Below, one piece after another: positions 2,851 to 32,550 of a stretch of DNA of 64,000 bases; position 1 is the first letter of the stretch, and each line of letters starts with the position of its first letter. Source of the DNA: a virus (taxonomy: Duplodnaviria; Caudoviricetes); IMG/VR virus record IMGVR_UViG_2920580016_000002, positions 1 through 64,000 of that record, one strand, 5' to 3'. The notes under the pieces are model-generated. The model did no database searches. It saw only the letters and a program-made list of their open reading frames with translations, and was not told the DNA's origin. The position numbers were made by a program, and so were the translations under genes.

Positions 2851-3527
2851 GCCAAGGGCTCCTGTCGCCAGGTGTGTGTTTGGGATGGCTCCACTCTTGC
2901 AGCCCCCGGCCGCCCGCCGCAACTGACGTCTGCGCAGGTCAAGATGCGTTTCAGAGGCCGTTTTTAAGGCTCGCGCACGCGTAATTAAGCGTTTCCCCAG
3001 CCCGCGAGGACCTCTCCGGCCCGCACTACGCGGGATTCTGGACGTAAACCTCGCCCGCAGCCGCGTAGAGCCACAATGTCACGGTTGCATAACACTGAGG
3101 TCCTGTCCGAGGAGCCGGTTAGGCTCCGGTTATGAACCTGCAAGAGATCATCGCAGCGAAGCGCCGAGAGTACGGAGCGGCCGAGTGGCGGCGCATGGAG
3201 CTGGAGGCCGAGCAGGCGACCGGCACGTGGATCGACTACCGGCGCGGTGTTGAGTGCTGGCGCTGCGGTCACACCAGCCGCCCCTGTGCCTGCCCCGAGT
3301 AGTCGCAAACGCGAAGGCGGACCTCCCGGCGACGTCTTGCTGTTCTTACGGGGAAAGCGCGACGGCAATCCTCGATGAAGGGCCGGGAGGCCCGCCACGT
3401 GCGCGGGAGGTGTTCATGTGGCCATAACCACCGTAAGGCTCTCTCGGGCCTCAATGGAGCCCGCGCACGCAACGAAGATACGCCTGCGCCCATGCTCCGG
3501 CAAGGCAATCACCAGAACTTGACGCCC

Positions 3528-3758
3528 TCACTCTGATTCGACCCAGAAGGTGGACGAGGCTCTGCCCGTGGCGTCGTACGTCAGCTTGACGATCTGCTCC
3601 GAGTCCGGCTGACCCAGGCACAGGCCGAACTCCTCCGCCAGCAGGCCCCGGTACTCCTCGTCCGAGATTGGCTCTCTGTGCCACGTCGAGACCGTGGCTG
3701 TTCCGTCTCCGTGATCACGCAGCACCGTGATCATCGTCTGCGGGTTCCCTCTGGACAC
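3528..3758 (-). CDS. possible small hypothetical protein
   Basis: 76-aa ORF with protein-like composition, isolated in the gene-poor region. Confidence 0.4.
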   Translation of the reverse strand: MSRGNPQTMITVLRDHGDGTATVSTWHREPISDEEYRGLLAEEFGLCLGQPDSEQIVKLTYDATGRASSTFWVESE

Positions 3759-5339
3759 GGGTTCGACCTTTCGCCGAATTAGCCCTAATTAATTGCTAAT
3801 TAGCTCGAAGCGAATTAAATCTATTGCACGTGCAATTAAGGGACTGGCTCCTCGCGGTGTTAGGCGCACAGCAAGGAGCCAGCCGATGCTCCATCCTGCC
3901 AGCTCGACCAGCTCGACGGTCACCGAATCCCCGCAATTCCCCCGATTCGCCGCTTGTGACGTTACGTTAGCTAGCAGGTGCCGCACGTACAGGCCACTGT
4001 CTTCACTCTCTGTACTCCCGCCGCGTGGCTGGTCGGGCCGCTAGGAGGGACCCGCAAGATCATTTAAGGGTGGGGGGTGCCTGTCAAGCGCGAGCGGCTG
4101 TCACAGCGCGTTCTAGACCTGTTGCAGAACGCTAGAGAGACTTGTGAGAATGGCACTACTCACACATAGGACGTGACCAGGCACGATGTCACACAGTGAT
4201 TTCTATACCATACGTGTCAAGCTCACGCTGTGTATCTAGACCAATCTCGGGGAAGCCCTACCGGCCACTGTCAGGAAATGATCTTCGGAGTCTGACAGTG
4301 CTGCCCGACCAACGGGAAACGGGAACGAATCCCCACTACTCTGGTTGGTTAACTGACAGCTATGTAAGGACATAAGCACAAAAGCGCTTGCAAGCCGCTT
4401 GCTCCAGCAATCACGGAATGCGCTTATATAAGTCAATTCGCATAGTTCCGACGGCGCGCGTGGCGCGCACGGAACGGGGGCACGCCGGGAAATCCATAGA
4501 TGCCTCTATGCGTCTCTGTAGTACATCTAGGAGGCTCTATGGGCCTTGTTTGGTAGTCATTCCCCGAGCCCGATTTTCTCGCCTCTATGGTGCCTTGTAG
4601 GCCCGTAAATTCGTTCTCGGAAACCTATTGACTCTCTACTCGGATCGAGTAGTCTATGGATTGTTCGGCCAGCGGGAACGGCCGGACCGGTCGCCCCACG
4701 AGCCACGATCCCCGCAAGGGATACGGGCACGGAAGCGGGTATGAGGGCCGACAATTGCATATGACTATGAGCGTGGAGAGGGCTTGCCCTTCCGTGCCCC
4801 GACTTTTCCAGGATGCTCGCGTTTCAGCCTGCGCATTGCGCGGCGCGCTTGAGCGGTCGGTGACACGCACGGACGGCAAGGGTCTAGCTAGGTCTTATTT
4901 AGTCATGCGCGGGAGTCGGTCAGATTCTTGAGTATTCAATAGTGGATTTGGGAGCACTGGACTTGTACCAATGCCCTGATGTGCCTATCTCGCAGTGTGG
5001 CAAGCGCACTGTGAGACTTGCGCGATGATCTCTCGCCGAGATACGCGGACCGTTGTCTCGCCCCGAAAATTTGGGCTGGTTGACCGGGAGCCGCTGGGTC
5101 AAGTTGTGGGAGCGTAGGCACATGTGGTTAGCCACCACGAAGGGAGCGCGTAAGCGCACGTCGCAAGCCGTAAGTAGGTCTTGGACCGGTGCCCCGGCGC
5201 GGACAGCAACGCACGAACCTTATTCACCGCGCCACACGCTAGAGATTGGCCTAGCGAACCAATCTCTTGTGTGTTCTCTGTACGGGCAGACGCGCGTACC
5301 GGGAATATGCACAAAGGCGAATCGTAGAGAGGTAAGAGA

Positions 5340-5519
5340 ATGATCACTCTCGAATACAACCCGTTCGCGAAGCAATTCGACGTCAAGCGGGATGGCGAAT
5401 ACATCGGTTTGATAGAGGAGAACCACGAGACTTACCGGGCGCGTAAGATCGGCTCAAGTTTCGCGAACACAACACAGAGCATGTGTGACGCAATCGACTT
5501 CATCACTGAGGGGAAGTAG
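5340..5519 (+). CDS. small hypothetical protein (59 aa, MITLEYNPFAKQFDVKRDGEYIG...), absent from the ORF track
   Basis: AGAGGT RBS, ATG 5340 to TAG 5519; apparent first gene of the rightward block. Confidence 0.7.
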   Translation: MITLEYNPFAKQFDVKRDGEYIGLIEENHETYRARKIGSSFANTTQSMCDAIDFITEGK

Positions 5520-5527
5520 GTAGAGGC

Positions 5528-5671
5528 ATGGCAGACAACATCGCTCGGCAAGCGCTTATCAATCGGGCGCGGAAGAACAACCACTACTTGCGGCGCGGGC
5601 TCATCTCATGGGCGGATTGGGCCGAAGAGGTGCGCCATATCCAGGCGTACGCATGGCACGTGGTCGGCTAG
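5528..5671 (+). CDS. small hypothetical protein (47 aa, MADNIARQALINRARKNN...), absent from the ORF track
   Basis: GAGG RBS, ATG 5528 to TAG 5671, followed directly by hammerhead 1. Confidence 0.65.
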   Translation: MADNIARQALINRARKNNHYLRRGLISWADWAEEVRHIQAYAWHVVG

Positions 5672-5674
5672 TGA

Positions 5675-5746
5675 TGGCGAAACGCTCGTCTCCCTAACCG
5701 GGAACGTGCGTCGTGCGTAGTTGGTCACTGCGCACCTGATGAGCCA
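5675..5746 (+). ncRNA. type II hammerhead ribozyme #1, predicted cleavage after C5712
   Basis: Stem II TGGC/GCCA, GAAA 5679-82, stem III CGC/GCG, GUC triplet 5710-12, stem I GTGCG/CGCAC, CTGATGA 5736-42. Confidence 0.88.
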
Positions 5747-5788
5747 AACCCAGCTCACAGCACCAACACACAGAAAGGCGGTAGACCC

Positions 5789-6022
5789 ATGGCACAGGGA
5801 CACATGGCGAACGTGCGGGCCGACGGGTACATGGCGCTCGTGATCGGAGCCGCGTTTTCGGACGGCTGGCATGTGGAGCAGACGGAAGAGGCTACCTACA
5901 TCTTCACCAGAGGTGACGAGACGGTCACACTGCCGTTCGTGGAGAACATGCGCGACGCGTTCGATGTCCTGCACTTCGCCGAGCGCTACGGGCTCATGAG
6001 CAAGATCACTGGCAAGCGCTGA
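5789..6022 (+). CDS. hypothetical protein
   Basis: CACACAGAAAGGCGG leader before ATG. Confidence 0.75.
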   Translation: MAQGHMANVRADGYMALVIGAAFSDGWHVEQTEEATYIFTRGDETVTLPFVENMRDAFDVLHFAERYGLMSKITGKR

Positions 6023-6139
6023 CCTTACTTCCGTGTTTCCCTATGTGCTAGCGTCTACCAAACCGGGAGGCGCTAGCACACAGCTCACACGCCCTCACCA
6101 GGGCATCTCTGTGCCCACACCCCAGAAAGGCGGCAAATC

Positions 6140-6454
6140 ATGGTCTCGTTCCTTCCGGATGGCGCGTACGACCGCGACCGTACCCAGACTCCCTACACGT
6201 GCCGAATCTGCGGAAAGGATAGCTGGGTATACAACCCAACCAACCCGAGCATGTTCCGGAGCACGCCGACGGCACACAGCTCATGTGAGAACGCGATCGG
6301 CTACACCAACGCTGACATGCGGCGTGCCACGCTGGCGGGCGATGAGCTGGGCGCGTTGCACCACTACGGCCGGTACCTCCGTGCATGCGCTGGTAACCCG
6401 GATCCCGACTCATGGGACCTGCCGTCGCTCCAGCAGTATCCCCACATTCGCTAG
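6140..6454 (+). CDS. hypothetical protein with CxxC motif
   Basis: CAGAAAGGCGG leader; CRIC...C...C. Confidence 0.7.
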   Translation: MVSFLPDGAYDRDRTQTPYTCRICGKDSWVYNPTNPSMFRSTPTAHSSCENAIGYTNADMRRATLAGDELGALHHYGRYLRACAGNPDPDSWDLPSLQQYPHIR

Positions 6455-6523
6455 GCGAAACGTGCGTCTACCTAACCGGGACGCGCGTCATGCCGGGATT
6501 GGTTACCCGGCGTCTGACGAGCC
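6454..6523 (+). ncRNA. type II hammerhead ribozyme #2, predicted cleavage after C6489
   Basis: GGC/GCC stem II, GAAA 6457-60, stem III CGTGCGTC/GACGCGCG, GUC 6487-89, stem I ATGCCGGG/CCCGGCGT, CTGACGA 6514-20. Confidence 0.92.
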
Positions 6524-6572
6524 AGACCGCGCACGGCAGAACCCCAACCATCACACAGAAAGAGGGACACCT

Positions 6573-7718
6573 ATGTCTCGCGAGTCCATGACCTGGCTGA
6601 ACACTCAGACTCTCATCGGCTTCGCCGCGAAGCGTGGGAAGGCGTGGCACTACCGGTCGGAGGAGCAGGGCGCGGAGTCGAACCACTACGACGGCGCTAT
6701 CCCGCTGGAGGACGTCAAGCGGCGGCTGTTCCACTGGGAGCCGCTGGAGATGCCCATTTTCACCATCATCCCCGCACAGATCACGGCGGACGGCGTCCAG
6801 CCTGCCCGCATCGTGCGCTTCAAGGACCGTAAGTCCATCCTTCGCTCTGACGAGATGGAGACGGTCGGTATCGACGTCGCCCACATCAGCGCGCTTGCGG
6901 CTAACCCGCATGTGGAGCTGGAAGACCTGGCGGACAAGGGCGTCCTTGCTGGCTTGGACGGCAACGCGCTGGGTGTGTTCATGGACAGCTACCAGCCGCA
7001 CCCGTACGCGCAATGGCTGCTCATGAACGTTGAGCGCATCCTTGACGGCAACCTCTCCATCGGCTCGGCCGGTCTGCTCAAGGGCGGAGCCCAGGCTTGG
7101 GTGTCCGTCGAAGTTCCCGAGAACATCAAGACGCCGGAAGGTGTGGACTTCCGCCCGAATCTGCTGGCCACCACGAGCTTTGACGGCTCGCTCGCCACCA
7201 CATACAAGAACGTGGTCACGGTGGTTGTCTGTGACAACACGCATGCGGTTGCCATGCGAGAGAAGGGGCAGGCGTTCAAGGTTCGGCACAGTTCCAAGAG
7301 TCTGAACAAGATTCAGGACGCGCGGGCCGCGCTGAACATCGTCTACGACACGGCCGACGCGTTCCAGCAGGAGGTTAAGCGGCTGTGCGAGACAACGGTC
7401 ACTGACAAGCAGTGGGCCGCGTTCATGAATGAGCTGGTGCCCGTTCCGACCGACCCGAAGAAGAAGCAGGGCATCACCATGGCGGAGAACAAGCGCGCCG
7501 AGTACGCCCAGCTCTGGAACTGGGATGAGCGTGTCAGCCCGTGGAAGAACACCGCATGGGGCGTTCTCCAGGCGGTCAACACCTACGACCACCACAAGGG
7601 CATCGTGAAGGGTGCCACGCGGGCCGAGCGCAACATGTCCAAGATGGTCAAGAACCACTTTGAAACCCTGCGTACCGACACGCTGGACACGCTGAACAAG
7701 GTTCTCGCGACGGTGTAG
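6573..7718 (+). CDS. DUF932 / phage-plasmid LGT_TIGR03299-type protein
   Basis: Start ATG 6573 after the leader; AWHY, YQPH, SAG.L.GG.Q.WV, TSFDGS..T, VVCDNT, VRHS and TAWG.LQAVNTY.HH motifs. Confidence 0.85.
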   Translation: MSRESMTWLNTQTLIGFAAKRGKAWHYRSEEQGAESNHYDGAIPLEDVKRRLFHWEPLEMPIFTIIPAQITADGVQPARIVRFKDRKSILRSDEMETVGIDVAHISALAANPHVELEDLADKGVLAGLDGNALGVFMDSYQPHPYAQWLLMNVERILDGNLSIGSAGLLKGGAQAWVSVEVPENIKTPEGVDFRPNLLATTSFDGSLATTYKNVVTVVVCDNTHAVAMREKGQAFKVRHSSKSLNKIQDARAALNIVYDTADAFQQEVKRLCETTVTDKQWAAFMNELVPVPTDPKKKQGITMAENKRAEYAQLWNWDERVSPWKNTAWGVLQAVNTYDHHKGIVKGATRAERNMSKMVKNHFETLRTDTLDTLNKVLATV

Positions 7719-7867
7719 GCCGCTCATGGGAGCGTCTCTCTAACCGGGAGATGCTCCCACCCCTTCCCCGATTTCTAGGCGAGCTAGGGGGACGCACGGG
7801 CCGCGTGTCCGTGCCTCCCTCAGTTCGATGTGACGTCGGACTCCCCACACAGAAAGGCGGTAGATCC

Positions 7868-8158
7868 GTGCTGCTCAACAAGCTCCGCACGTCCGATGCG
7901 GTCGCTAAGTTCCTCCGGCAGGCCGGTTGTCTGGGTGTGCAGATGGACAGTAGGACATGCCCGGTCGCGCAGTACATGCGGCGGTGCTATCCGCAGGCAA
8001 AGAACATCTCTGTCGGATTGCGTTTCTCGCACATCAACCTCCGTTCTGGTCTGCTCGTGATCAGGCACTCAGATGCGGTCAAGCTGTTCGTTGAGAGTTT
8101 CGACAGCGGGTATTACCACGACCTGATTAGCAAGCGTAACGACGCCGACCAGCGTTAG
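7868..8158 (+). CDS. hypothetical protein
   Basis: Leader motif followed by GTG 7868; CPVAQY and FV..FDSG.Y. Confidence 0.7.
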   Translation: MLLNKLRTSDAVAKFLRQAGCLGVQMDSRTCPVAQYMRRCYPQAKNISVGLRFSHINLRSGLLVIRHSDAVKLFVESFDSGYYHDLISKRNDADQR

Positions 8159-8160
8159 CC

Positions 8161-8409
8161 ATGCCTGCATATCCGCTCGGATTCATAGAGGCGCTCTCTG
8201 ATGACTCGCCCGAAATCCGAGAGGATGCGGCGCGCTGCATCATCGAAGAACGCGAGGTAGAGCTAGCGGGCCTTCAAGCACGCCTAGCAGTCGCGAACAC
8301 CGCAACCCGACGCCGGAATCTCCAGACGCGTCGCAAAGCCCTTAGAAACAACATCAGCGCTTGGCAGGCGTACATAGATGACGGCTGCCCGCGCTACGCA
8401 CCTTCATAG
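8161..8409 (+). CDS. hypothetical coiled-coil protein
   Basis: Tightly packed ORF. Confidence 0.65.
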   Translation: MPAYPLGFIEALSDDSPEIREDAARCIIEEREVELAGLQARLAVANTATRRRNLQTRRKALRNNISAWQAYIDDGCPRYAPS

Positions 8410-8411
8410 GA

Positions 8412-8711
8412 GTGAGTGTGTCTGAGATCCACGAGAGCACGCCCGAGCAGCCTGTTTATCTGCGGTTCCTGGTCGGCCGAATGGAGTTGCTGCATCAGGT
8501 CACCATTCCGAGCGACAACGCGGGCCGCGTGGAAATGGCGCTGGTTGTTCTGCGACGGGAGCACGACACCACGCCTTACATCGTGTGCTACGTCAGCGAG
8601 CATTCCGCGAAGTTCGGGGAGTGGTTTGAAGGTTTCTACACCTCCGATCACGTCACCGCATACGTGGAAATGGCGCGACGGGCAAAGCTCTACGGCATCG
8701 AAGTCAAGTAG
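8412..8711 (+). CDS. hypothetical protein
   Basis: AGGAG RBS; its stop overlaps hammerhead 3. Confidence 0.7.
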   Translation: MSVSEIHESTPEQPVYLRFLVGRMELLHQVTIPSDNAGRVEMALVVLRREHDTTPYIVCYVSEHSAKFGEWFEGFYTSDHVTAYVEMARRAKLYGIEVK

Positions 8712-8771
8712 GCGAAACGCGCGCTACGGCGCGTGTCGTGTCGGGAGTCGTTACCCGATGCCTGATGAGCC
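8711..8771 (+). ncRNA. type II hammerhead ribozyme #3, predicted cleavage after C8737
   Basis: GGC/GCC stem II, GAAA 8714-17, stem III CGCGCGC/GCGCGTG closed by a cUACGg tetraloop, GUC 8735-37, stem I GTGTCGGG/CCCGATGC, CTGATGA 8762-68. Confidence 0.93.
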
Positions 8772-8795
8772 AGACCACACAGAAAGGCGGGAGAA

Positions 8796-9314
8796 ATGGC
8801 ACCTCGCATTGACAAGAACCTGGTGATCGTTCTGGACCACACGCGATTTCAGGGGTTCGGTCACATCTACGCCAAGCCGTTCGTAGAGAACAACGGGTTC
8901 GAGCCGACCGGTAAGGGTGATCTCCTAGCCCCCGGACTTGGTAGCCGGTGGGGCTGGGAGCGTAATTACAACTGGCTGCGTGATCTCCGAACGTCAGCGC
9001 AATACACCATTGGGCACGCGGACGGAGGCTTGTACGGCTACGACATCCACTATTCACAGCCGTTCAGTGTCCAGCTCTACCAGGCGGAGGCGATGGTTAA
9101 GGCACTCCGCAAGATCCATCGAGAGATGGACAAGCTGAAGAGCACTCACGGCTACCCCGATTCCTATGGGGAGTACGTCGCGCACTTCGCTATAGCTATC
9201 GGCTGCAACCGCTTCGCCACCTGGCAGAACGGCACGCGTAGCTACATGTGGATGAACACAGCCGAGATGCGTACTTGGGTGGAAGGCGTCTTTCGCGAGG
9301 CGGTGGCGGCCTGA
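8796..9314 (+). CDS. hypothetical protein
   Basis: Leader motif before ATG. Confidence 0.75.
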   Translation: MAPRIDKNLVIVLDHTRFQGFGHIYAKPFVENNGFEPTGKGDLLAPGLGSRWGWERNYNWLRDLRTSAQYTIGHADGGLYGYDIHYSQPFSVQLYQAEAMVKALRKIHREMDKLKSTHGYPDSYGEYVAHFAIAIGCNRFATWQNGTRSYMWMNTAEMRTWVEGVFREAVAA

Positions 9315-9315
9315 C

Positions 9316-9549
9316 ATGGAAGACGTACGCGAGGCTGACAGGCCCATGGTGGGCATTGTGGCCTGGTCCAATCAGGTCTGTGTCTACCGTCTCCCCGATT
9401 ACGCCGATTGTTTCCAGTCGATTGCCGTTCTCTGGGGTGAATACCTCTCGGGAACGGTAGTGCTGGAAGTGACGCCGGACGCATGGGAAGCCGAGCGAGA
9501 CGAGCTGCTTTCCGCGCCGGATATCACGGTAGCGACCTTCGGTTTCTAG
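9316..9549 (+). CDS. hypothetical protein
   Basis: Packed ORF with GAGG RBS. Confidence 0.6.
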   Translation: MEDVREADRPMVGIVAWSNQVCVYRLPDYADCFQSIAVLWGEYLSGTVVLEVTPDAWEAERDELLSAPDITVATFGF

Positions 9550-9683
9550 GCGGTCTAGGGGGATGCGCGGACACGCGCCGCGCGTCCCTCAGTCCGATGT
9601 GACTCCGGACTATTCCCCACTGCTAGAAAACCGTGCGTCTCTCAAACCGGGAGGCGTGCGGCGCAACGCCCAAAGGATGAGCC

Positions 9684-10268
9684 GTGACACCTATTCCCCT
9701 CCCGGTTTCTGACGAGACGCACGAGCGTTTCGTGGCCAACATCATCTACACGTACGGCCACGCGACACAGGACCAGTGGGAGCGCGGTAAGACCTGGTAT
9801 CACCAGGCTAACCAGCTCGCCGCGATGATCTCGGGTGGCGACGTAGTGACCGGTGCAGGCGTCATCGCTGCCCTGTCGAGTAACAAGCGGTGGAGCGATA
9901 ACACGAAGCTGGCTGCTCGCGCGTTCCTGCGTGGCGAACCGTCGGGGCACGTCGGTGATGCCCTGACGAAAGCGGCTCGGATCATGGCGGGCGAGCGGCC
10001 TACTGATGTTCTCCCCATGTCCAGCAAAACGGGCCAGTTCTTTCTGTGCATCGCCAATCCGGCCGATCCTCAGGCGGTCTGTGTGGACCGGCACGCGCAC
10101 GACGTAGCCGTTGGCGTGAGGTACGGCAGCGAGAATCGCGGCCTTAGCTCTAAGGCGCGCTACCAGGCCATCGCGGACGCGTACAGAGATGCCGCGCGGC
10201 GGCTTGATGTCCTTCCCCTGACGGTTCAAGCCGTCTGCTGGGTTGTCCAGATCGAAAGCAGCAACTAA
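9684..10268 (+). CDS. HhH/endonuclease III-like phage protein (DUF7178-like putative base-excision enzyme)
   Basis: G..WY..A, AGVIAALS, KT..F, VCVDRHA and Y..IADAY..AA...LP..VQA.CWV motifs. Confidence 0.6.
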   Translation: MTPIPLPVSDETHERFVANIIYTYGHATQDQWERGKTWYHQANQLAAMISGGDVVTGAGVIAALSSNKRWSDNTKLAARAFLRGEPSGHVGDALTKAARIMAGERPTDVLPMSSKTGQFFLCIANPADPQAVCVDRHAHDVAVGVRYGSENRGLSSKARYQAIADAYRDAARRLDVLPLTVQAVCWVVQIESSN

Positions 10269-10286
10269 CACAGAAAGGCGGAAGTT

Positions 10287-10856
10287 ATGTCCACAGAGTT
10301 TCTGACCATGGCTCGCGACGTGGCCCGTGAAATGGGCGGCTGGGATGTGCGGGGCGGTCCCTGGCCGAATCAGTTCTACATCTACGACGGCGACCAAAAG
10401 CTGTGCCTGACGTTCGACGACCTTGACGACACAGGCCGGGTCAACATCAGCACCAGCTACCCGGAACGGTCGGGCGAGGTATACGGCGTGAGGCAGTACA
10501 ACATCGGCGTGTCCTTCAAGCGCGGGGCGGCGGTGATCGCCCGCGAGATCAAGCGGCGGCTTCTGCCTAACTACCTGGCGGAGTTGGAGCGCGTGAAAAA
10601 GGAAATCGCCGAATTCGTAGAGGCGGAGCGCCGACAGGTGGCCAACGCTAAGGCGATAGCTGGCGCTCTCGGCGTGGAGTGTGCGGCGGTTGTTCACCCC
10701 TCCGGCATCTACGTGCGTACCGGATACAGCGGCGACTACCAGGACGTTGGTCGCCCCGAATTCCGCGTGTTGGGAAGCGGAAATGTTGAAATCAAGATCC
10801 ATGCGCGGGCCGACGTCGCGCTGAAGCTCGCCGAATTCATGGCGACAATCAAGTAA
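10287..10856 (+). CDS. hypothetical protein
   Basis: Leader motif before ATG. Confidence 0.75.
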   Translation: MSTEFLTMARDVAREMGGWDVRGGPWPNQFYIYDGDQKLCLTFDDLDDTGRVNISTSYPERSGEVYGVRQYNIGVSFKRGAAVIAREIKRRLLPNYLAELERVKKEIAEFVEAERRQVANAKAIAGALGVECAAVVHPSGIYVRTGYSGDYQDVGRPEFRVLGSGNVEIKIHARADVALKLAEFMATIK

Positions 10857-10946
10857 CAACGGTCGCGAGCGCTTCTGGCATCGCCCGGATTTCCGGGCGG
10901 TGTCAGTGGCACGGCGAACGTGTCAGCCACACACAGAAAGGCGGTA

Positions 10947-11291
10947 ATGATGAAGCTGCTCAGTCTGTTCAAGCGCACGCCGCGCTACATCGTCGAGATC
11001 GCGCACGACGAGCTTTATGCCACATGCCTTAACCCCGACTGCCCGATGGACCTGGAGCAGATCAAGCTCCTAGACAACGGGGATGAGGCGGCCTATCACA
11101 TCGCGGTCTATCAGGTGTGCCCCGATGGCCACGGTAGCGAGTGCCCGCATGCCAATTTGATCGCCGACACCACCTGTATCGCGGACTACGGCCTTCCTAC
11201 GGGGCGATACAGCACCCCGGACGACATCGGCGGATCTGACTATCTACGCGATGTCGCTAGCGGCATCTGGCCTGGAAAGGTGGCGGCGTAA
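10947..11291 (+). CDS. Cys/His-rich hypothetical protein
   Basis: Leader motif before ATG 10947. Confidence 0.7.
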   Translation: MMKLLSLFKRTPRYIVEIAHDELYATCLNPDCPMDLEQIKLLDNGDEAAYHIAVYQVCPDGHGSECPHANLIADTTCIADYGLPTGRYSTPDDIGGSDYLRDVASGIWPGKVAA

Positions 11292-11542
11292 TGAATGAGC
11301 GGTCGCGACTCTGCGTGCCCATCGAGCGGGAGATTTACCGGCTGCTGCTGGAGCGCGTCCCGAACAATGCAGACCGGCTCCCCACGTTCGAGACCATCAA
11401 CGATATGGACGAGCAGGTAGCCCATGCGGCTATGAACTGCATAGAGAACTATCTGGCGGACAACGGAAGCCTGTGGCACTTCACCAGGCGGAGGCGCGTA
11501 CGCGAGTGGGCCGAGAACACCCTTAAGCGATTCGGTCTCTAA
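11291..11542 (+). CDS. hypothetical protein
   Basis: TAATG stop/start overlap. Confidence 0.7.
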   Translation: MNERSRLCVPIEREIYRLLLERVPNNADRLPTFETINDMDEQVAHAAMNCIENYLADNGSLWHFTRRRRVREWAENTLKRFGL

Positions 11543-11558
11543 GAGAAAGGCGGATGTA

Positions 11559-11822
11559 ATGAACGTTGCCCAAATCATCTGGTCTATGTCGCGGAGCCTC
11601 TCCCGATATGAGAATGCCCGCACGATCCTCGGAGAGACGTACGCGAAGCTCAGCCGTACCGATGTGCCCCCGCTAGACAGCGCACGGGAAGCGCTCGCGT
11701 ACGTGACAGACCACATCGGTTATGCACCCGGTCAGTCGCCAGACACCACGCTCAATGACGCGGTGGCTGTGCTGTCCATGTACGTGGCGATTCTCACTTT
11801 GGCCGACAAGTACGAGAGCTAA
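11559..11822 (+). CDS. hypothetical protein
   Basis: AGAAAGGCGG RBS. Confidence 0.7.
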   Translation: MNVAQIIWSMSRSLSRYENARTILGETYAKLSRTDVPPLDSAREALAYVTDHIGYAPGQSPDTTLNDAVAVLSMYVAILTLADKYES

Positions 11823-11838
11823 GGGAAAGGCGGAAGTA

Positions 11839-12141
11839 ATGGCACGCAAGGTAAAGCCGATGTGGACTCTCGTGCAGCACAGCGCTTATGGATGGGACCG
11901 CAAGGAGGGGTTCCGGCACATGGTAGAGACCAGGTCTGTTCTCGATCGTGTCCAGCAGCGGGAGATTGAGCGCCTGGGCGGCCTGCTCTTCGAGAGCTAC
12001 ACCGACGCCGATGAGGCGGAGTACCGGGAGAACTACCCCGAAGGTGCCGATCTCCTCGCCGGGAAGGTACGCGGCACCTTCGCCGAGTACAACCTTGACG
12101 GACTGAAGCTCTACATTCCCGCGAAAGACGACACGGCCTAA
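11839..12141 (+). CDS. hypothetical protein
   Basis: GAAAGGCGG RBS before ATG 11839 (MARKVKP). Confidence 0.7.
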   Translation: MARKVKPMWTLVQHSAYGWDRKEGFRHMVETRSVLDRVQQREIERLGGLLFESYTDADEAEYRENYPEGADLLAGKVRGTFAEYNLDGLKLYIPAKDDTA

Positions 12142-12233
12142 CGGGTCCTCTGGTCACCATGCCTGCCCCGAATTCTGCGGTGGGCATGGGCGGCTGGGGC
12201 GTCCGCTAGGGCGATCACACAGAAAGGCGGGAG

Positions 12234-12491
12234 ATGGGAAAGCACCGCAAGACCAGCATGCCGAATCCGACCAGCAACGTGGCCAACGAGCACGGCGCGA
12301 TGCTGGCGAGGTTCGGAACGACGGCACCCGAGGCCGAAACTCTCCTCCGTTTCGGCTCTTTGGTCCTGTCCAACATCGCTACTGGCTTCGCTCCTGATCG
12401 GGCAACGGCGGCGGCGCTGCGCTCCTTCAGCGATCCGGAAAACGTGGTCGAACTGGGGGCGTCGGTCTGGGAACGCATCGAAACCGAATAA
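12234..12491 (+). CDS. hypothetical protein
   Basis: Leader motif before ATG. Confidence 0.7.
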   Translation: MGKHRKTSMPNPTSNVANEHGAMLARFGTTAPEAETLLRFGSLVLSNIATGFAPDRATAAALRSFSDPENVVELGASVWERIETE

Positions 12492-12511
12492 CACAGAAAG
12501 GCGGTAGAACA

Positions 12512-12892
12512 ATGCGAGACGTTCACCTGGAATTCCGGGACAGCGTCGGCTGGTGCGGGACGGCACCAGAGGATGAGAACAAGATCACGGATGACCGGCA
12601 GCTCGCCACTTGCGACGACTGCCGTACGGCATGGGAGAACTTCGACGCCTCCCACGATGCCGAGCTGCCGGAGGACTACGACGGGTCCGAGCCGGAGCTA
12701 CTGGCCAAGATGCGCAGGATCCAGGCCGGTGTGGCGGGCCGCATCGGAAACACCCTGATCGACATGCAGAGCGCGAACCTCTGGGTGCAGGCATACGAGA
12801 AGGGCAACGACAACACCAAGGCCAAGCTACTGGAGATGGATCCGGGAACGGCGTGCCTTGCGCTCTGGCGCATTGTTGGGCGGTCGAAGTGA
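12512..12892 (+). CDS. hypothetical protein with C...CxxC motif
   Basis: Leader motif before ATG. Confidence 0.7.
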   Translation: MRDVHLEFRDSVGWCGTAPEDENKITDDRQLATCDDCRTAWENFDASHDAELPEDYDGSEPELLAKMRRIQAGVAGRIGNTLIDMQSANLWVQAYEKGNDNTKAKLLEMDPGTACLALWRIVGRSK

Positions 12893-13065
12893 CCGCCCTT
12901 GAGATTGCTGCTCGGGCCGCGTTCTACGCCCGGCAGCGAGAGGCACAGGCGGTCGTGACGGACCTGAGTCGGCGGGAGCGCGCGGCGCGGCGCTCGGGTG
13001 ACCGGGCGCACGTACGAGCCATCCGGCGCGAGGTGCGGCGCATCCGCTCCGAGGCATCGGCCTAA
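12889..13065 (+). CDS. small Arg-rich hypothetical protein (MTALEIAARAAFYARQRE...)
   Basis: GTGA overlap with the upstream stop; fills the gap to the next leader. Confidence 0.55.
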   Translation: MTALEIAARAAFYARQREAQAVVTDLSRRERAARRSGDRAHVRAIRREVRRIRSEASA

Positions 13066-13091
13066 ACACCACACACAGAAAGGCGGTAGTA

Positions 13092-14060
13092 ATGGCAGAG
13101 ATCGAACAGCGGGAGATCCTCCTCCCCGAAGGCAATGTGTTCGTGTCCATCGAAGAGGCTCGGGGTGAGCGCGGGGAGCTGCCCACGTTGCGCGTGGCGA
13201 CGTCAACCCACACAGGCACCGACGCCGTAGAGACCACGGTCAAGATCAAGGCGCACGAGTACACCTTCCTCATGCGGGTCATGCACGGGACGAAGAAAAC
13301 GTGGTTGTACTCCCGCCAGGAGTGGCAGGAGGAGCACGGATGGCACACGGCAGACAACGAGCACATTCGAACGGCGGGCGGTAACGAGCTGGGCCGGTAC
13401 TCTCCTACCGGCGAGCGGCTGGCCAACGTCGCCGTCATCGCAGCACAGGAGTACGAGAAGCTCGTACCTGACTGGCGCGTGCGCAGCAAGATCGCGGCCA
13501 TGCACAAGGCCATGAGAGCCGATTGGCACAGCTACTACCTGAACACGCGCGAGGCGGTAGGGCTGCGGCTGCACTGCGCGGAGTTGGAAGAGGGTATTCG
13601 CGCGCTGCTGCCTGACCTCACTGAGGACCTGCCTCTGCCCGATTTCGCTCTCGACCTCAACCAGCCCCACTTCCGCGAGATCTACGGCGAACACGAGTGG
13701 TGGCACACAGAGGGCGACGTCTACGGAAACCCCGGCATGTGGCACGTGCCTGGCTGCCCGGTGACGTGGCGGGCCGGTGCGGTCCGCAAGGAAACCGCGC
13801 CCATCATGCGACTCCTGGTGAAGGGCGGCGCGCTGTGCGGCTGCGTGCCTGACAAGACCACGGCTGTGGAGATGCCCGACGGCAGCCTGCGATGGCGGCC
13901 AAGCGGCCTGGCCTGGCACCGCTGGGCGGTGGTTGAGAAGGTCGCCGAGGAGTCACGGCTGGTGAGCTGGCACCTGACAGAGGACGACGTCATAGCCGCT
14001 GTCGGGCGAAGCCAGAACCCCACGGCGTGGGCCGCTCGCGCATACCTCACGCAGCCCTAG
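13092..14060 (+). CDS. hypothetical protein (322 aa; C-terminal H..GC / CGC possible metal site)
   Basis: Leader motif before ATG. Confidence 0.75.
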   Translation: MAEIEQREILLPEGNVFVSIEEARGERGELPTLRVATSTHTGTDAVETTVKIKAHEYTFLMRVMHGTKKTWLYSRQEWQEEHGWHTADNEHIRTAGGNELGRYSPTGERLANVAVIAAQEYEKLVPDWRVRSKIAAMHKAMRADWHSYYLNTREAVGLRLHCAELEEGIRALLPDLTEDLPLPDFALDLNQPHFREIYGEHEWWHTEGDVYGNPGMWHVPGCPVTWRAGAVRKETAPIMRLLVKGGALCGCVPDKTTAVEMPDGSLRWRPSGLAWHRWAVVEKVAEESRLVSWHLTEDDVIAAVGRSQNPTAWAARAYLTQP

Positions 14061-14167
14061 CGGGTCCTCTGATCACCGCGCGTCTACCTAACCGGGACAG
14101 GCGCGCGGCCGGTCGGGGCGTCCGCTCGGGCGATCACCAACACACAGAGAAAGGCGGTAGATCCGTC

Positions 14168-14437
14168 ATGCCCAAAGTCCTGATCTTCCCTTACCAGCGT
14201 CCCCAGAGCCGAGTTCCCGACGTGCGCGGCCTGGGCTGGGTGGCCCGTCGCGCCCTCATGATGCGGGCGTCATTCAAGCTGGAACGCCTGGAGAAGGGCA
14301 CGAGCATCCTCATCGGCCAGACCTTCGACGGCGACGAGCGGACCAAGCTCAAGGCGCAGCTCCAGCAGATCAAGGCGGATCTCCGCGCTATCCGGAAGTA
14401 CGCCAGCGATGGTTTCCCGGCTATCCGGGAGGTCTGA
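14168..14437 (+). CDS. hypothetical protein
   Basis: Leader motif followed by ATG 14168. Confidence 0.65.
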   Translation: MPKVLIFPYQRPQSRVPDVRGLGWVARRALMMRASFKLERLEKGTSILIGQTFDGDERTKLKAQLQQIKADLRAIRKYASDGFPAIREV

Positions 14438-15211
14438 GTGCTCGCCCGATTTTTCTGCGGTGCCCCTGAGCTGAGCTGGGCAGAAGAGCACGGCGACATA
14501 GGGCCGTTGTTCATCAGCTTCAACCGCATTTCCCGGTTAAAGTTTCGGCCGATCATCATCACCACGGATTTCGCTATCGACTCAGGCGGCTTCACACAGC
14601 TTTCCAAGGGCGGTTGGCCTGATGGCTGCGAAGAGCCCTACATCGCCGCGATTCGCAGGCTCAAGCGGCACATCTGGAAGGGTGCGCAGCACCTTCAGTG
14701 GATTGCCCCGCAAGACTGGATGTGCGAGGAAGAGCAGCTAGCCAACACCGGCCTTACGGTGCTCGAACACCAGCAGCGCACCGTACAGAACTTCGTTCGC
14801 CTCACCGAACTTGCCCCCGATCTTCCATGGGCCATGGCGGTGCAGGGCACGAAACCGTCTGAGTATCTCCGCATTCTCGACATGTACGCGGATGCGGGAG
14901 TGGATCCCCACGCGCAGAAGATCGTCGGTGTCGGTTCGATCTGTCGTATTCAGCACACAGACCTGGCCGTAGAGATCATCGAGTCCTTGCACAATGCCGG
15001 GCTGCGGAAGCTGCACGGATTCGGGCTGAAGACTGAGGGGCTCGCAAAGGTCGGGCACCTTCTTACCTCCGCCGATTCGATGGCCTGGAGTGAGCACGCC
15101 CGGAAACAAAAGATCCGTCTCGACGGGTGTCCACACAAGCGGTGCGTCTCTTGCCCGAAGTACGCCAAGCAATGGCGGAACAGGCTCATCCAGCGCGGCC
15201 TAGCCGCTTAA
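14438..15211 (+). CDS. DpdA/TGT-like (queuine tRNA-ribosyltransferase-like) base-exchange protein
   Basis: FAIDSGGF, APQDWMCE, VQG, VGVGSICR, LHGFGLK and SADSMAWS motifs plus C-terminal C.H..C..C. Confidence 0.8.
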   Translation: MLARFFCGAPELSWAEEHGDIGPLFISFNRISRLKFRPIIITTDFAIDSGGFTQLSKGGWPDGCEEPYIAAIRRLKRHIWKGAQHLQWIAPQDWMCEEEQLANTGLTVLEHQQRTVQNFVRLTELAPDLPWAMAVQGTKPSEYLRILDMYADAGVDPHAQKIVGVGSICRIQHTDLAVEIIESLHNAGLRKLHGFGLKTEGLAKVGHLLTSADSMAWSEHARKQKIRLDGCPHKRCVSCPKYAKQWRNRLIQRGLAA

Positions 15212-15229
15212 CACAGAAAGGGGAAAGAA

Positions 15230-15475
15230 ATGACGGATCTCAAAGCCTGGCATATGAACGTGCCGGAGCTGGGCGCGTGGAACGAGGTCGCGACCGGTGC
15301 ATGGCAGCTACACAACTTCGGCAAGCAGCTCGACGACATCGCCTTTCAGGTGCTCAAGCAGGCGCGGCACTACCCGAAAGCCGCTGAGCAGGTGATCACT
15401 GGGCTGAACGAGCAGATTGCCCACCTGGTCAAGCTTCGTGACGACCTGACCGCGTTCAACCAGAACCAGCGCTAG
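15230..15475 (+). CDS. hypothetical protein
   Basis: ACACAGAAAGGGG leader. Confidence 0.7.
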   Translation: MTDLKAWHMNVPELGAWNEVATGAWQLHNFGKQLDDIAFQVLKQARHYPKAAEQVITGLNEQIAHLVKLRDDLTAFNQNQR

Positions 15476-15507
15476 CCCCTACCCAATCACACAGAAAGAG
15501 GGAAGTA

Positions 15508-16026
15508 ATGCCCTTCGACAACCCCTCCCTTCTCGTCACCTTCGTTGGTGAGGGTGAGCACCGGCACGAAGAGCTGGAGTTCGACCTGCTTGACGTCGAG
15601 CTGGCGGAGCTGCAAGACGAGATCCGGAAGGCCATTGGGCCGTGCTACACGATCGAGACGGACGACGACGACTGGGAAGGCGTTGCCGTCGCAGAGGCGG
15701 CGTCGGCGCACGACCTGTGGCAGCTCGCCCGGACGGCTCACAAGCTGGACTATTCGGAGGCGTTCTTGGCCTGGGTGGCGCACGTCCGGCCCTACAGCAT
15801 CCGCAGCCTAAACCTGGAGGAGGCGGTTGAGGATTTCGGCAAGGAGTTCGTCGGAGCTTTCGAGAACTTCGAGGCGTACGGGCGTGACTCGCTGGCGGAT
15901 GAGATCTTGCGCTTCCCGGCGCTGGATACGTTCTTCGACTTCGAGGGGTACGGCGAATGGCTGGCTTCCGACTACACATCGGTTGACCTGAACGCGGGCG
16001 GCTTCGCGCTGTTCAGGAAGGTCTGA
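15508..16026 (+). CDS. ardA: antirestriction protein, ArdA family (DNA mimic)
   Basis: Very acidic; EAFLAWV, F.G.FE..E.Y and FFDFEGYG..L motifs with a FALFR C-terminus. Confidence 0.8.
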   Translation: MPFDNPSLLVTFVGEGEHRHEELEFDLLDVELAELQDEIRKAIGPCYTIETDDDDWEGVAVAEAASAHDLWQLARTAHKLDYSEAFLAWVAHVRPYSIRSLNLEEAVEDFGKEFVGAFENFEAYGRDSLADEILRFPALDTFFDFEGYGEWLASDYTSVDLNAGGFALFRKV

Positions 16027-16030
16027 GGCC

Positions 16031-16402
16031 ATGGCCAACAAGGTCATTCGCAAGTCTGACGGTGCGCGCGGCCAGTGGGTCTTGCGGGCTCAGCCGCAGA
16101 ATCACTCCATCTACGAGTGGCACGACACTCAGCCGATGTTCGCCCAAGAGATCCTTCCTCATAGCGATGTGGCCGACCCGCACGACCGCGAGGGCGGGCG
16201 CTGGGGGCAGGTGGCGGAGCTGGCGCAGGCTGCTTCTGGCGCGGCCGGAGTGCTGGGCGAGATCGCCGCACACTGCATGAACGGCGGTTGGTACAACGAG
16301 ACGGAGCGGGACGCCAAGCGGCAGCTTGAGCGGCTGGAGCACATCACGGCTCTGATGCGCGAGCGCGTAGAGGCTGCGTGCTGTACCGGGCGCAATCGCT
16401 GA
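16031..16402 (+). CDS. hypothetical protein
   Basis: Packed ORF with GAGG RBS. Confidence 0.65.
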   Translation: MANKVIRKSDGARGQWVLRAQPQNHSIYEWHDTQPMFAQEILPHSDVADPHDREGGRWGQVAELAQAASGAAGVLGEIAAHCMNGGWYNETERDAKRQLERLEHITALMRERVEAACCTGRNR

Positions 16403-16411
16403 AGGTCTGAC

Positions 16412-16454
16412 CGGGGTTGACTCCTAGAATCGAGTAGAGCTGGAGTCAACCCCG
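16412..16454. promoter_or_regulatory. perfect 13-bp inverted repeat CGGGGTTGACTCC-N17-GGAGTCAACCCCG upstream of the RHH gene
   Basis: Read directly from the sequence; intergenic, 13 nt before the ATG. Confidence 0.55.
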
Positions 16455-16467
16455 ATCGGAGTACACC

Positions 16468-16803
16468 ATGGCGTATTCAACGAGCATGTACCTGCCCGTC
16501 ACAGTCATCAAAGCAATGAACGAGAAAGCGGAGAAGAGCGGCCTTACCCTATCCGCTGTTGCGGCGGCTCTCGTAACGAGAGCACGGAGGGGCGAACTTC
16601 CCGCCGAGTTTCTCATTCCCCCGAAATTCGAGCGGGGCGAGACCAAGAAAACCCAGAACGTCTACCTTTCAGACGATGTCTGGACGGAGGGCGAAGGCGC
16701 TGCAATAATTCCTGAAAAGGACCGCCCGCGATTCGTTACGGCGCTGATGTACGCCTACTCGCGGTGCCTGGTAGACGTGCAGCTAACCGTCACCATTACC
16801 TAA
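16468..16803 (+). CDS. tandem ribbon-helix-helix-like DNA-binding protein
   Basis: Two beta-strand + helix-helix units: STSMYLP..VIKAMNEKAEKSGLTLSAV and TQNVYLSDDVW...PRFVTAL. Confidence 0.55.
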   Translation: MAYSTSMYLPVTVIKAMNEKAEKSGLTLSAVAAALVTRARRGELPAEFLIPPKFERGETKKTQNVYLSDDVWTEGEGAAIIPEKDRPRFVTALMYAYSRCLVDVQLTVTIT

Positions 16804-16829
16804 CACACACAGAAAGAGTAGCGGAGCAT

Positions 16830-17627
16830 ATGAAGGACCGGGAAAGCATCGAGAAGCGGGCACAGGCCATCCTTGCCAAGGCCGAATCCGCAGCCAAGCT
16901 CGGCAACCATGAGGAGGCGCAGACATATTTCGCTGCCCTCTCTGAGATGTTCCACAAGTACGACCTTGACGCGGCAGCGCTGAAGCCGGAGACGGAGGCG
17001 GGCCGCAAGGCAATCAACATCGTCACGTACTCCTTCCAGGTGTCCAACCAAGGCCAGCACGGGCGCGAGCGCGTTGAGGCTCTGTACGAATTCATCTGGG
17101 CCATGGGCTGCGCCGCCTCCGTGTGGGGCTGCAAGCGCAACACCTACGGTGCGCCGATCCGCTTCGAGGTGCTCGGGCCGGATGACGTTATGGAGCGGCT
17201 CAAGGTCCTGATCCCGGCTCTTCTGCTCCAGATGGACGCAGCGGCCAGCCAGTCGGCGAAGGCGTACCGGGAGCGCGAGCGGAAGGGGATGGAGTGGTTC
17301 TACCGCGACTATCCAGGCGAGCTGGCGTACAAGGTCAAGATCTGGTACCGGTCCGTCATCGTCGGCTACGGCAAGGGCGTAGCGCAGAAGGTATACGAGC
17401 GCATGCAGGTCATCCAGGAGGAGGCGGCAGGCACCGGCAAGGACCTGGTCTTGCTGGACCGCAGGACCGCCGTTGAGAAGGCGTACGAGGAACTCTGGCC
17501 GGACCTCAAGCAGATGCGCGAGATCAAGACTCGTGCTGACGCCGTGGAGGAAGGGCGCAAGCTCGGGCGAGCGGCCGACCTGGGAGACCAGCGTCTCGGT
17601 AACGAGCGCACGAGCATCACTGCTTAG
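16830..17627 (+). CDS. DUF2786-domain protein
   Basis: N-terminal I.KRAQAILAKAES....EEA..Y......HKY.L helix hairpin; leader motif upstream. Confidence 0.75.
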   Translation: MKDRESIEKRAQAILAKAESAAKLGNHEEAQTYFAALSEMFHKYDLDAAALKPETEAGRKAINIVTYSFQVSNQGQHGRERVEALYEFIWAMGCAASVWGCKRNTYGAPIRFEVLGPDDVMERLKVLIPALLLQMDAAASQSAKAYRERERKGMEWFYRDYPGELAYKVKIWYRSVIVGYGKGVAQKVYERMQVIQEEAAGTGKDLVLLDRRTAVEKAYEELWPDLKQMREIKTRADAVEEGRKLGRAADLGDQRLGNERTSITA

Positions 17628-17707
17628 CCGGATTCGTGTCGGGGCGGCGTCCTACGATGGGGCGTCGCCTCTCTTCTTCCCCGAAATGCAGCAGATCAGG
17701 AGCAGAT

Positions 17708-31901: not shown

Positions 31902-32221
31902 TTCGGCACCTCGTCATCAGGAATGCGCTGAATGCCGAAGTAACCGCTGCGCTTGACGACTCGCCACCACCCGACAACTACGCCCTTCCCGAGATAGATG
32001 TCCGGAAGCATCTTGTCGAAGTCGCTCCAGAACATCGGGAATTTGTGGCCGTTCCGGTCTTCCCAGAGAATCGAGAACGACGACGTCCGCCGGTCATATC
32101 CGGCGTACATCAGAGTCGCCAGGAAAGGCGTGACAGTGCGGCGAGTGATTCCCTGTATCCAGGACGTATCACGCACCATGTTGCCCTTCGAGTCGAAAGG
32201 CACGTCTTCGAGAATCATCAT
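31898..32221 (-). CDS. hypothetical protein
   Basis: Overlapping packing. Confidence 0.65.
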   Translation of the reverse strand: MMILEDVPFDSKGNMVRDTSWIQGITRRTVTPFLATLMYAGYDRRTSSFSILWEDRNGHKFPMFWSDFDKMLPDIYLGKGVVVGWWRVVKRSGYFGIQRIPDDEVPK

Positions 32222-32550
32222 CAGCCGCCCGAACCTCCGCGTCCGCCGCCACCGAATCCGCCCCGAGAAATAACCGTTCCGGAACGGGTAGAGATGTTGG
32301 CGTTCGACGGCCGGATGGTGGTTCCGCCACGGACATATCCGCCATGGCTGGAGCCGCCGTAGATGTAGTAGAAAGCGCTGTGGCCTCTGTCGCAGTTCTC
32401 GTCAGCCACGATTCGATGCGTACCGTCCGGCTGCGGGGTACGTTCTACGCAGTCGGCGACCACGTCAGGTCCGGACGAGCAGGCCGTCATCACCAGGGCG
32501 GCAATGGTGGCGATGCTCGCGAGTTCGATCTTCTTGGAGGACTTTTTCAT
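32221..32550 (-). CDS. lipoprotein with Gly-rich RGGFGG tail
   Basis: Signal peptide and lipobox LVMTA-C; two further Cys; RGGFGGGG end. Confidence 0.7.
   Translation of the reverse strand: MKKSSKKIELASIATIAALVMTACSSGPDVVADCVERTPQPDGTHRIVADENCDRGHSAFYYIYGGSSHGGYVRGGTTIRPSNANISTRSGTVISRGGFGGGGRGGSGG

Follow-up and report, generated by a model that had tools for sequence, protein, structure and literature searches.

A type II hammerhead in an intercistronic gap of an actinomycete prophage operon

Genes and signals at the locus

The window, the whole stretch of DNA that was analyzed, comprises 64,000 nucleotides (positions 1 to 64,000 of the IMG/VR virus record IMGVR_UViG_2920580016_000002). 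Its GC content is about 63%, compared to 70.3% for the actinomycete genome, and its phage genes include those for a family A DNA polymerase (PolA), a DnaB-type helicase, RecA, a class II ribonucleotide reductase, an SNF2 helicase, and baseplate J. The rightward strand from about 5.3 to 17.6 kb encodes DUF932, DUF7178, DpdA, and ArdA. Because the operon carries DUF932, DpdA, and ArdA, the transcript is early or anti-defense in character. Three hammerheads lie in this operon, numbered 1 to 3 from left to right. Hammerhead 3, at 8710 to 8779 on the + strand, is the subject of this report.

Upstream of hammerhead 3 is a tight block of three genes (7871 to 8158, 8161 to 8409, and 8412 to 8711). In the ORF list, the last of these, on the + strand, encodes 99 amino acids from GTG 8412 to a TAG stop at 8709 to 8711. 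Its GC content by codon position (0.62/0.37/0.77) is typical for coding sequence of the element, and both ORFs flanking the ribozyme show the codon-position GC pattern of real genes. GTG 8412 comes directly after the preceding stop; GTG 8418, with AGGAG 5 nucleotides upstream, is a more plausible start and would give 97 amino acids. The ESM Atlas record of this protein starts at residue 3 (GTG 8418) and is grouped with small viral hypothetical proteins. Pfam and PHROG searches returned no match for ORF 8412 to 8711.

Downstream, the ORF list places a 172-amino-acid protein at 8796 to 9314 (+), with the next ORF (9316 to 9549) directly after it. A homologue of the 172-amino-acid protein (51 to 52% identical) is encoded directly 3' of a hammerhead in the related element G301, a 108,967-bp viral contig whose proteins are recorded from Streptosporangium sp. 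NPDC050855. The same genome as the window also encodes a 48% identical paralogue at C20:152060-152578 on the − strand, with no hammerhead upstream or nearby, and this paralogue may reside in a second mobile element. For the proteins on either side of hammerhead 3, Pfam, PHROGs, and the ESM Atlas yielded nothing usable on function.

The 84-nucleotide intergenic gap is essentially filled by hammerhead 3 and a Shine-Dalgarno site. The first-pass annotation described the ribozyme as fused to an upstream stop codon and a downstream leader. The stop codon fusion is as described: TAG 8709 to 8711 ends ORF 8412 to 8711, and stem II starts on its G. The distance of 58 nucleotides from the cut to ATG 8796 was likewise correct. 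As for the leader, the motif CACAGAAAGG does begin at 8778, and it occurs 18 times in the window versus 3.0 expected, nearly all of these copies being on the + strand ahead of starts in the 5.7- to 16.8-kb region; the leader CACACAGAAAGGCGG precedes most rightward genes. What adjoins the ribozyme is, however, largely an extended Shine-Dalgarno sequence, and its proximity is a trait of the family rather than of hammerhead 3. Within the CA-rich leader (8776 to 8795, + strand), AGAAAGGCGG lies at 8781 to 8790 and is followed by a 5-nucleotide spacer. Nine of its 10 positions are complementary to the host 16S rRNA at its 3' end (...CACCUCCUUUCU; anti-Shine-Dalgarno CCUCCUUUCU). The leader, with AGAAAGGCGG as its core, is therefore an extended Shine-Dalgarno site after a CA-rich tract. 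A regulatory RNA site beyond the Shine-Dalgarno was considered and is not established, as the 16S complementarity explains the conserved core.

Structure and conservation of hammerhead 3

Rfam cmscan matched Hammerhead_II (RF02276) to 8710 to 8779 (+) over its full length (model positions 1 to 66). The score of 42.8 bits lies above the gathering score of 37 and makes hammerhead 3 a member of the family, with an E value of 2.1e-5 for the window and 9.4e-7 for the 12.4-Mb genome. The clade-specific covariance model R1 gave 77.5 bits. A descriptor of the core only, with no pairing requirement, found three sites in the window versus 0.19 expected, and none of 100 shuffles reached three.

Reading from 8710, the element consists of A, GGC, GAAA, CGCGCGC-UACG-GCGCGUG, UC, the predicted cut, GUGUCGGG-AGUCGUUA-CCCGAUGC, CUGAUGA, GCC, and AGACCACA. 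The 5' strand of stem II (GGC, 8711 to 8713) takes its first G from the stop codon and pairs with the 3' strand G8769-C8770-C8771. Core residues G12, A13, A14, and A15.1 (GAAA) follow at 8714 to 8717 in the Rfam alignment. The stem III hairpin (8717 to 8736) contains one G.U pair and is capped by a cUACGg tetraloop at 8724 to 8729 (C8724-UACG-G8729). The same alignment puts the cleavage triplet GUC at 8735 to 8737 and the predicted cut between C8737 and G8738. Stem I is a hairpin at 8738 to 8761 (8738 to 8745 paired with 8754 to 8761) with two wobbles and the 8-nucleotide loop I AGUCGUUA at 8746 to 8753; folds and covariation support stem I and stem III alike. Core residues C3 to A9 (CUGAUGA) occupy 8762 to 8768, and the 3' tail AGACC, with which loop I is predicted to form a pseudoknot, is read directly at 8772 to 8776. 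The first-pass annotation had assigned 8711 to 8776 to a hammerhead, and the Rfam score, the complete core, and the minimum free energy (MFE) fold all bear this out. Each part that it named (GGC/GCC, GAAA, the UACG tetraloop, GUC 8735 to 8737, an 8-bp stem I, and CTGATGA) is present where it was placed. Its 7-bp stem III is also present, but the helix has 8 bp once A15.1-U16.1 is counted.

The invariant core of the family is C3 U4 G5 A6 N7 G8 A9, G12 A13 A14, and a cleavage triplet N-U16.1-H17. Hammerhead 3 has CUGAUGA at 8762 to 8768, GAA at 8714 to 8716, and GUC at 8735 to 8737, with all 11 invariant nucleotides intact. The acceptance rule of Perreault et al. is that A15.1-U16.1, N10.1-N11.1, and N1.1-N2.1 must be Watson-Crick pairs (PMC3088659). 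The three core-adjacent pairs of hammerhead 3 (A8717-U8736, G8769-C8713, and G8738-C8761) are intact and all Watson-Crick.

The MFE fold of the 71-nucleotide element (8709 to 8779) reproduces the hammerhead three-way junction exactly (−29.8 kcal/mol), with 3 bp in stem II, 8 bp in stem III, and 8 bp in stem I. This energy is unexceptional versus shuffled sequences (z of −1.79). [quoted passage not shown] In a 171-nucleotide context, the MFE fold loses the 3-bp stem II to pairing with the upstream coding sequence and stems I and III persist; this longer fold ignores tertiary contacts, cotranscriptional folding, and ribosomes.

The pseudoknot between loop I and the tail is only 3 bp in hammerhead 3 and can form in two registers. 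G8747-U8748-C8749 could pair with G8773-A8774-C8775 or, in the register usual for the family, G8750-U8751-U8752 could pair with the same GAC, wobble included. In most type II hammerheads this pseudoknot has at least 4 bp, and the k_obs of a published model ribozyme fell about 20-fold or more when it was shortened (PMC3088659). Because of the 3-bp pseudoknot and this published loss of rate, hammerhead 3 may cleave slowly at physiological Mg2+, slower than its sibling hammerheads. The loop AGUCGUUA recurs in the hammerhead at G301:32378.

Covariation gave stronger support than the first-pass annotation, made from the window sequence alone, could have seen. The positional orthologue of hammerhead 3 is G301:30581-30651, which lies directly upstream of the homologue of ORF 8796 to 9314 and keeps the UACG tip. 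Compared with hammerhead 3, one pair in every stem has undergone a compensatory change on both sides: stem III has A-U for G-C, stem I has C-G for U-A, and stem II has G-C for C-G. Three further changes, each on one side only, switch a pair between wobble and Watson-Crick, and no pair is broken. In an alignment of the eight copies from the window and G301 (A2), 89.9% of cells were paired, compared to 29 to 47% in slid controls, and 8 pairs showed double changes. A larger alignment (A3) comprised 60 distinct sequences aligned to the clade model. Of its cells, 91.7% were paired versus 35 to 49% in slid controls, and 21 of 23 pairs showed double changes; the fit to the model somewhat inflates these pair counts, and the slid controls share the same bias. 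No shuffle reached the observed values. We left a MAFFT alignment of 22 pattern matches (A1) out of the counts, as it was out of register around GUC.

Across the 60 sequences, stem III was paired in 99.2% of cells, and the A15.1-U16.1 pair and the cleavage-site C were invariant in 60 of 60. The core columns were invariant or varied only at N7. The middle pair of stem II varied among GC, CG, AU, and UA. The pseudoknot was paired in 78% of cells, with GGUC/GACC alternating with GGUU/AACC.

Could this be an inactive relic or a chance look-alike, namely, two GC-rich hairpins that only stabilize the RNA or bind a protein, with a core kept by descent and no catalysis? The short pseudoknot and the loss of stem II in the long-context fold would fit such a reading. 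So would the composition of the operon, where equivalent gaps hold hairpins that are not ribozymes (carrying a 17-nucleotide motif, at 6047 to 6077, at 7728 to 7758, and near 14077) and where a degenerate hammerhead-like site exists at 9629 to 9715. Perreault et al. also allow for nonfunctional members among clustered hammerheads (PMC3088659). However, the 11 core nucleotides and the three core-adjacent pairs are all intact, the score exceeds the curated Rfam threshold, and the 0.19 sites expected by chance are far below the three observed. The substitutions relative to the two closest relatives are all compensatory or wobble, which is unexpected for a decaying relic. We therefore hold a relic or look-alike to be very improbable. 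Taken together, sequence, structure, covariation, conservation of position, and operon context identify window 8710 to 8779 as a complete, genuine-looking type II hammerhead.

Sister hammerheads and related elements

Hammerhead 1 (5675 to 5749, +) scored 27.9 bits with RF02276, below the gathering score, and 82.5 bits with R1. Its stem III carries the 17-nucleotide motif and one U.U mismatch, and a positional orthologue is present in G301. Hammerhead 2 (6453 to 6531, +; RF02276, 37.1 bits) lies upstream of the DUF932 gene, has the position 7 variant core CUGACGA, and also carries the 17-nucleotide motif in stem III. The three co-oriented copies (5675, 6453, and 8710) lie within 3.1 kb and are the only credible RF02276 matches in the 12.4-Mb assembly. 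Thus, the window shows the clustered prophage arrangement, with three + strand hammerheads in 3.1 kb among phage genes. Since no terminator-like site was found on the + strand from 3000 to 17640, all three ribozymes are probably in one long transcript.

Other candidates were rejected. The fourth Rfam match (25.8 bits, contig C11) has GAAC instead of GAAA in its core and a vestigial stem I. A scan of the window with R1, filters off, found no hammerhead beyond the three. Weaker R1 matches (9629 to 9715, 14068 to 14147, 6047 to 6077, and 7728 to 7758) were driven by the hairpin of the 17-nucleotide motif, which the model inherited from stem III of the siblings. The 9629 to 9715 site (+) follows a stop codon and reads UAG-AAAAC, a stem with the 17-nucleotide motif, GGC, a short hairpin, and GGAUGAGCC. 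It has neither the A15.1-U16.1 pair nor a proper CUGAUGA, and its R1 score of 22.5 bits owes most to the motif hairpin. The site could be a decayed ribozyme that overlaps the GTG start of the DUF7178 gene.

The motif itself, GTCTNYCWAACCGGGA (16 to 17 nucleotides; 17-nucleotide motif GUCUNYCWAACCGGGA), occurs 11 times in the 12.4-Mb genome, always inside the window (range 5688 to 63921) and always co-oriented with the local genes. Six sites are on the + strand (5688 to 5703, 6053 to 6068, 6466 to 6481, 7734 to 7749, 9637 to 9652, and 14082 to 14097), and five are on the − strand between 28.6 and 63.9 kb. In most places the motif makes up the tip of a GC-rich hairpin whose loop is UAACC or AAACC. 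In hammerheads 1 and 2 it is part of stem III; in other intergenic gaps it occurs by itself. G301 has the variant GUCUUUCACACCGG. The motif is absent from hammerhead 3 and from its positional orthologue. It is a candidate site for binding or processing by a phage factor.

A pattern made from the three window copies matched 26 viral contigs as well as 4 bacterial genomes, of which two are from Streptomyces and one each from Mycolicibacterium and Thermoactinomyces. G301 is collinear with the window at about 70 to 80% DNA identity, and its coding sequences are 43 to 88% identical in amino acids. It holds five type II hammerheads in 5.3 kb of the syntenic region (27112, 27874, 28568, 30581, and 32378). 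In three of the five, an extra C or U follows A9 of CUGAUGA ahead of stem II, two of these still scoring above the Rfam threshold, and one of the five reads CUGAGGA. Arrays also occur elsewhere: 8 copies in about 6.5 kb in G302, 11 in about 9 kb in G303, 3 in G304, and 8 R1 matches each, within an 8-kb locus, in Streptomyces sp. NBC_01506 and Streptomyces sp. BBFR102. With about one ribozyme per gene, the arrays of 8 or 11 copies, in phage contigs of the 50-kb class and in Streptomyces chromosomes, are much denser than the triples illustrated in 2011 (PMC3088659).

Other searches returned little. Phage collections held no match to the locus DNA (megablast of 5000 to 12000 and blastn of 8600 to 8900). 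By PolA, the closest named phages are GiJojo and BRock of Streptomyces (about 45% amino acid identity); we set them aside as comparators, as neither has a type II hammerhead. Viral contigs searched with the 172-amino-acid protein gave no relative of the locus, and the same search with the DUF932 protein gave one distant locus only, with no hammerhead. In 300 same-family genomes, the 172-amino-acid protein found only its C20 paralogue in the same genome. A single relative of the element's lineage was found among 5.8 billion protein clusters.

The position of hammerhead 3 between genes is shared by its relatives. In 56 of 60 family members, an open frame of 40 codons or more lies upstream and ends near the ribozyme. 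In 18 of these 56 the stop codon lies 2 to 4 nucleotides before stem II, and in 9 of the 18 this stop is a TAG whose G also belongs to stem II. The start codon usually comes 46 to 63 nucleotides after the cut, mostly 57 to 60. Thus, fusion to a stop codon and a leader is a trait of a compact intercistronic family of phage hammerheads and is not specific to hammerhead 3.

The comparison with G301 also led to a rival account of hammerhead 3. Outside the stem III tip, 66 of 68 positions are identical to the nonsyntenic copy G301:32378-32458, versus 53 of 69 for the positional orthologue; the two differences from the nonsyntenic copy place U.G against C-G. The similarity to the nonsyntenic copy runs exactly from TAG 8709 to the Shine-Dalgarno at 8786, and the flanking coding DNA is only about 70 to 77% identical. 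Hammerhead 3 therefore combines the body of the nonsyntenic copy with the UACG tip of the positional orthologue and looks like a mosaic of one module's body and another's tetraloop tip. The neighboring genes differ as well, with ORF 8412 to 8711 having no G301 homologue and G301 having two extra genes at about 31948 to 32829.

In this account the hammerhead is real, but its main significance would lie elsewhere than in plain mRNA segmentation. The unit of stop codon, hammerhead, and Shine-Dalgarno would be a portable junction module that passes from one intergenic site to another and from phage to phage, either as a substrate for recombination or as a part carried along with gene cassettes. 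The overlap of stop codon and stem II would let ribosomes terminating on the upstream ORF gate folding and cleavage. Both the stop codon spacing in the 18 of 56 family members and the remark of Perreault et al. that flanked genes "are not constant" (PMC3088659) fit it.

The region 8709 to 8786 (versus G301:32377-32465) is one of several intergenic modules more conserved than coding DNA (about 70 to 77%), others being 10858 to 10926 (versus G301:32828-32896, 91%) and 7774 to 7842 (versus G301:31226-31292, 87%). Some modules match nonsyntenic positions, and this points to exchange or homogenization of the intergenic punctuation elements. High identity could alternatively come from purifying selection on a small structured RNA or from gene conversion between paralogues, and the 91% at 10858 to 10926 shows that conservation above that of the genes extends to other intergenic modules. 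Proximity to a stop codon is expected for any compact phage genome, and the sample is only two related elements. We consider a portable junction module quite unlikely; it would in any case be compatible with, and not exclusive of, the mRNA segmentation that we favor (below).

An elaborated form of this idea, which we rate as unlikely, is an exchangeable punctuation cassette of actinophage early operons whose cleavage would depend on translation termination and whose stem III tip could be swapped. The cassette would move among intergenic sites and phages, hammerhead 3 being 97% identical to a nonsyntenic Streptosporangium copy, and, if this is true, it would mark breakpoints in the shuffling of accessory or anti-defense genes. 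The stem III slot would then hold either a plain UNCG loop (hammerhead 3, unregulated) or the 17-nucleotide hairpin (hammerheads 1 and 2), which a phage factor may bind, tuning cleavage.

Proposed role and comparison with known hammerheads

Our preferred reading is that 8710 to 8779 is probably a functional type II hammerhead that cuts the long rightward polycistronic prophage transcript into hairpin-capped units. The transcribed RNA would fold into the three-way junction, loop I would dock on the 3' tail AGACC through the short pseudoknot, and internal transesterification would cleave the RNA between C8737 and G8738. The cut would part the gene block 7871 to 8711 from the block 8796 to 9549. 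The upstream product would end in a 2',3'-cyclic phosphate 26 nucleotides past the stop codon, directly behind the GC-rich, UACG-capped stem III. The downstream product would carry its 5'-OH at the foot of stem I; after the stem I hairpin would come about 34 nucleotides that include the extended Shine-Dalgarno, and then the ATG. Because both new ends would be hairpin capped, they should be poor substrates for exonucleases or for RNases that depend on a 5' monophosphate, and the phage could thereby set the stability and translation of each gene block independently. In a fold of the isolated 3' product, part of the tract after stem I pairs with the downstream coding sequence. Cleavage at 8737/8738 and its effects on mRNA stability, translation, and expression are inferred.

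Activity of this class has published support. Perreault et al. proposed an mRNA-segmenting role for clustered prophage hammerheads, and multicopy prophage type II hammerheads, including ones that flank ardA, cleave in vitro and in vivo (PMC3088659). In Desulfovibrio vulgaris, three type II hammerheads cleave in vivo, and cyPhyRNA-seq on them sets a precedent in living cells for the 2',3'-cyclic phosphate and 5'-OH ends predicted here (PMC8782182). These belong to the same Rfam family as hammerhead 3, and the illustrated locus also lies among genes of phage origin. The D. vulgaris copies are at three separate genomic loci, whereas those in the window are arrayed in one operon.

The closest published systems are the RF02276 prophage hammerheads, such as the ardA triple of Agrobacterium tumefaciens (PMC3088659), which have the same permuted topology, core, and short stem II as hammerhead 3. 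Common to them and our locus are several copies, co-oriented in one phage operon, that flank single genes or short blocks of variable identity; their pseudoknot between loop I and the 3' tail has a putative counterpart in hammerhead 3. An ArdA gene is in the operon in both the A. tumefaciens case and the window, but in the window it is 6.7 kb away on the downstream side, and no hammerhead flanks it directly. Hammerhead 3 further differs from the published family in that this putative pseudoknot is reduced to 3 bp and in its unusual loop AGUCGUUA in place of AUUGGUYA. The host lineage is also different, a high-GC actinomycete related to Streptosporangium, and the siblings of hammerhead 3, unlike hammerhead 3 itself, have the element-specific 17-nucleotide hairpin at the tip of stem III.

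The arrays in G302, G303, G304, NBC_01506, and BBFR102 share with the window the subfamily signature (A)GGCGAAAC ... GUC ... CUGAUGAGCCAGACC. Like hammerhead 3, these actinomycete arrays have a UNCG- or GNRA-capped stem III, a stop codon a few nucleotides upstream, and a start codon about 46 to 63 nucleotides after the cut. Their elements are about 50 to 60 kb or unsized and are not syntenic with the window. In contrast to these arrays, the window element and the approximately 109-kb G301 have the distinctive CACACAGAAAGG leader and the 17-nucleotide motif.

Hammerhead 3 belongs to an already described class. The class, the pseudoknot, and the multicopy prophage arrangement have been known since 2011 (PMC3088659), so that hammerhead 3 taken alone is of modest interest and leaves knowledge of hammerheads unchanged. 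It does add a well-supported example from a rarely sampled lineage of actinomycete prophages, and it extends the known arrays of type II hammerheads that punctuate phage operons with anti-restriction genes. The locus also offers a natural test set, with three ribozymes graded by pseudoknot length (3 or 4 bp), by the base at position 7 (U or C), and by a tetraloop or the 17-nucleotide motif in stem III. The five hammerheads of G301 enlarge this set for studying the effect of cleavage on the stability and translation of adjacent cistrons.
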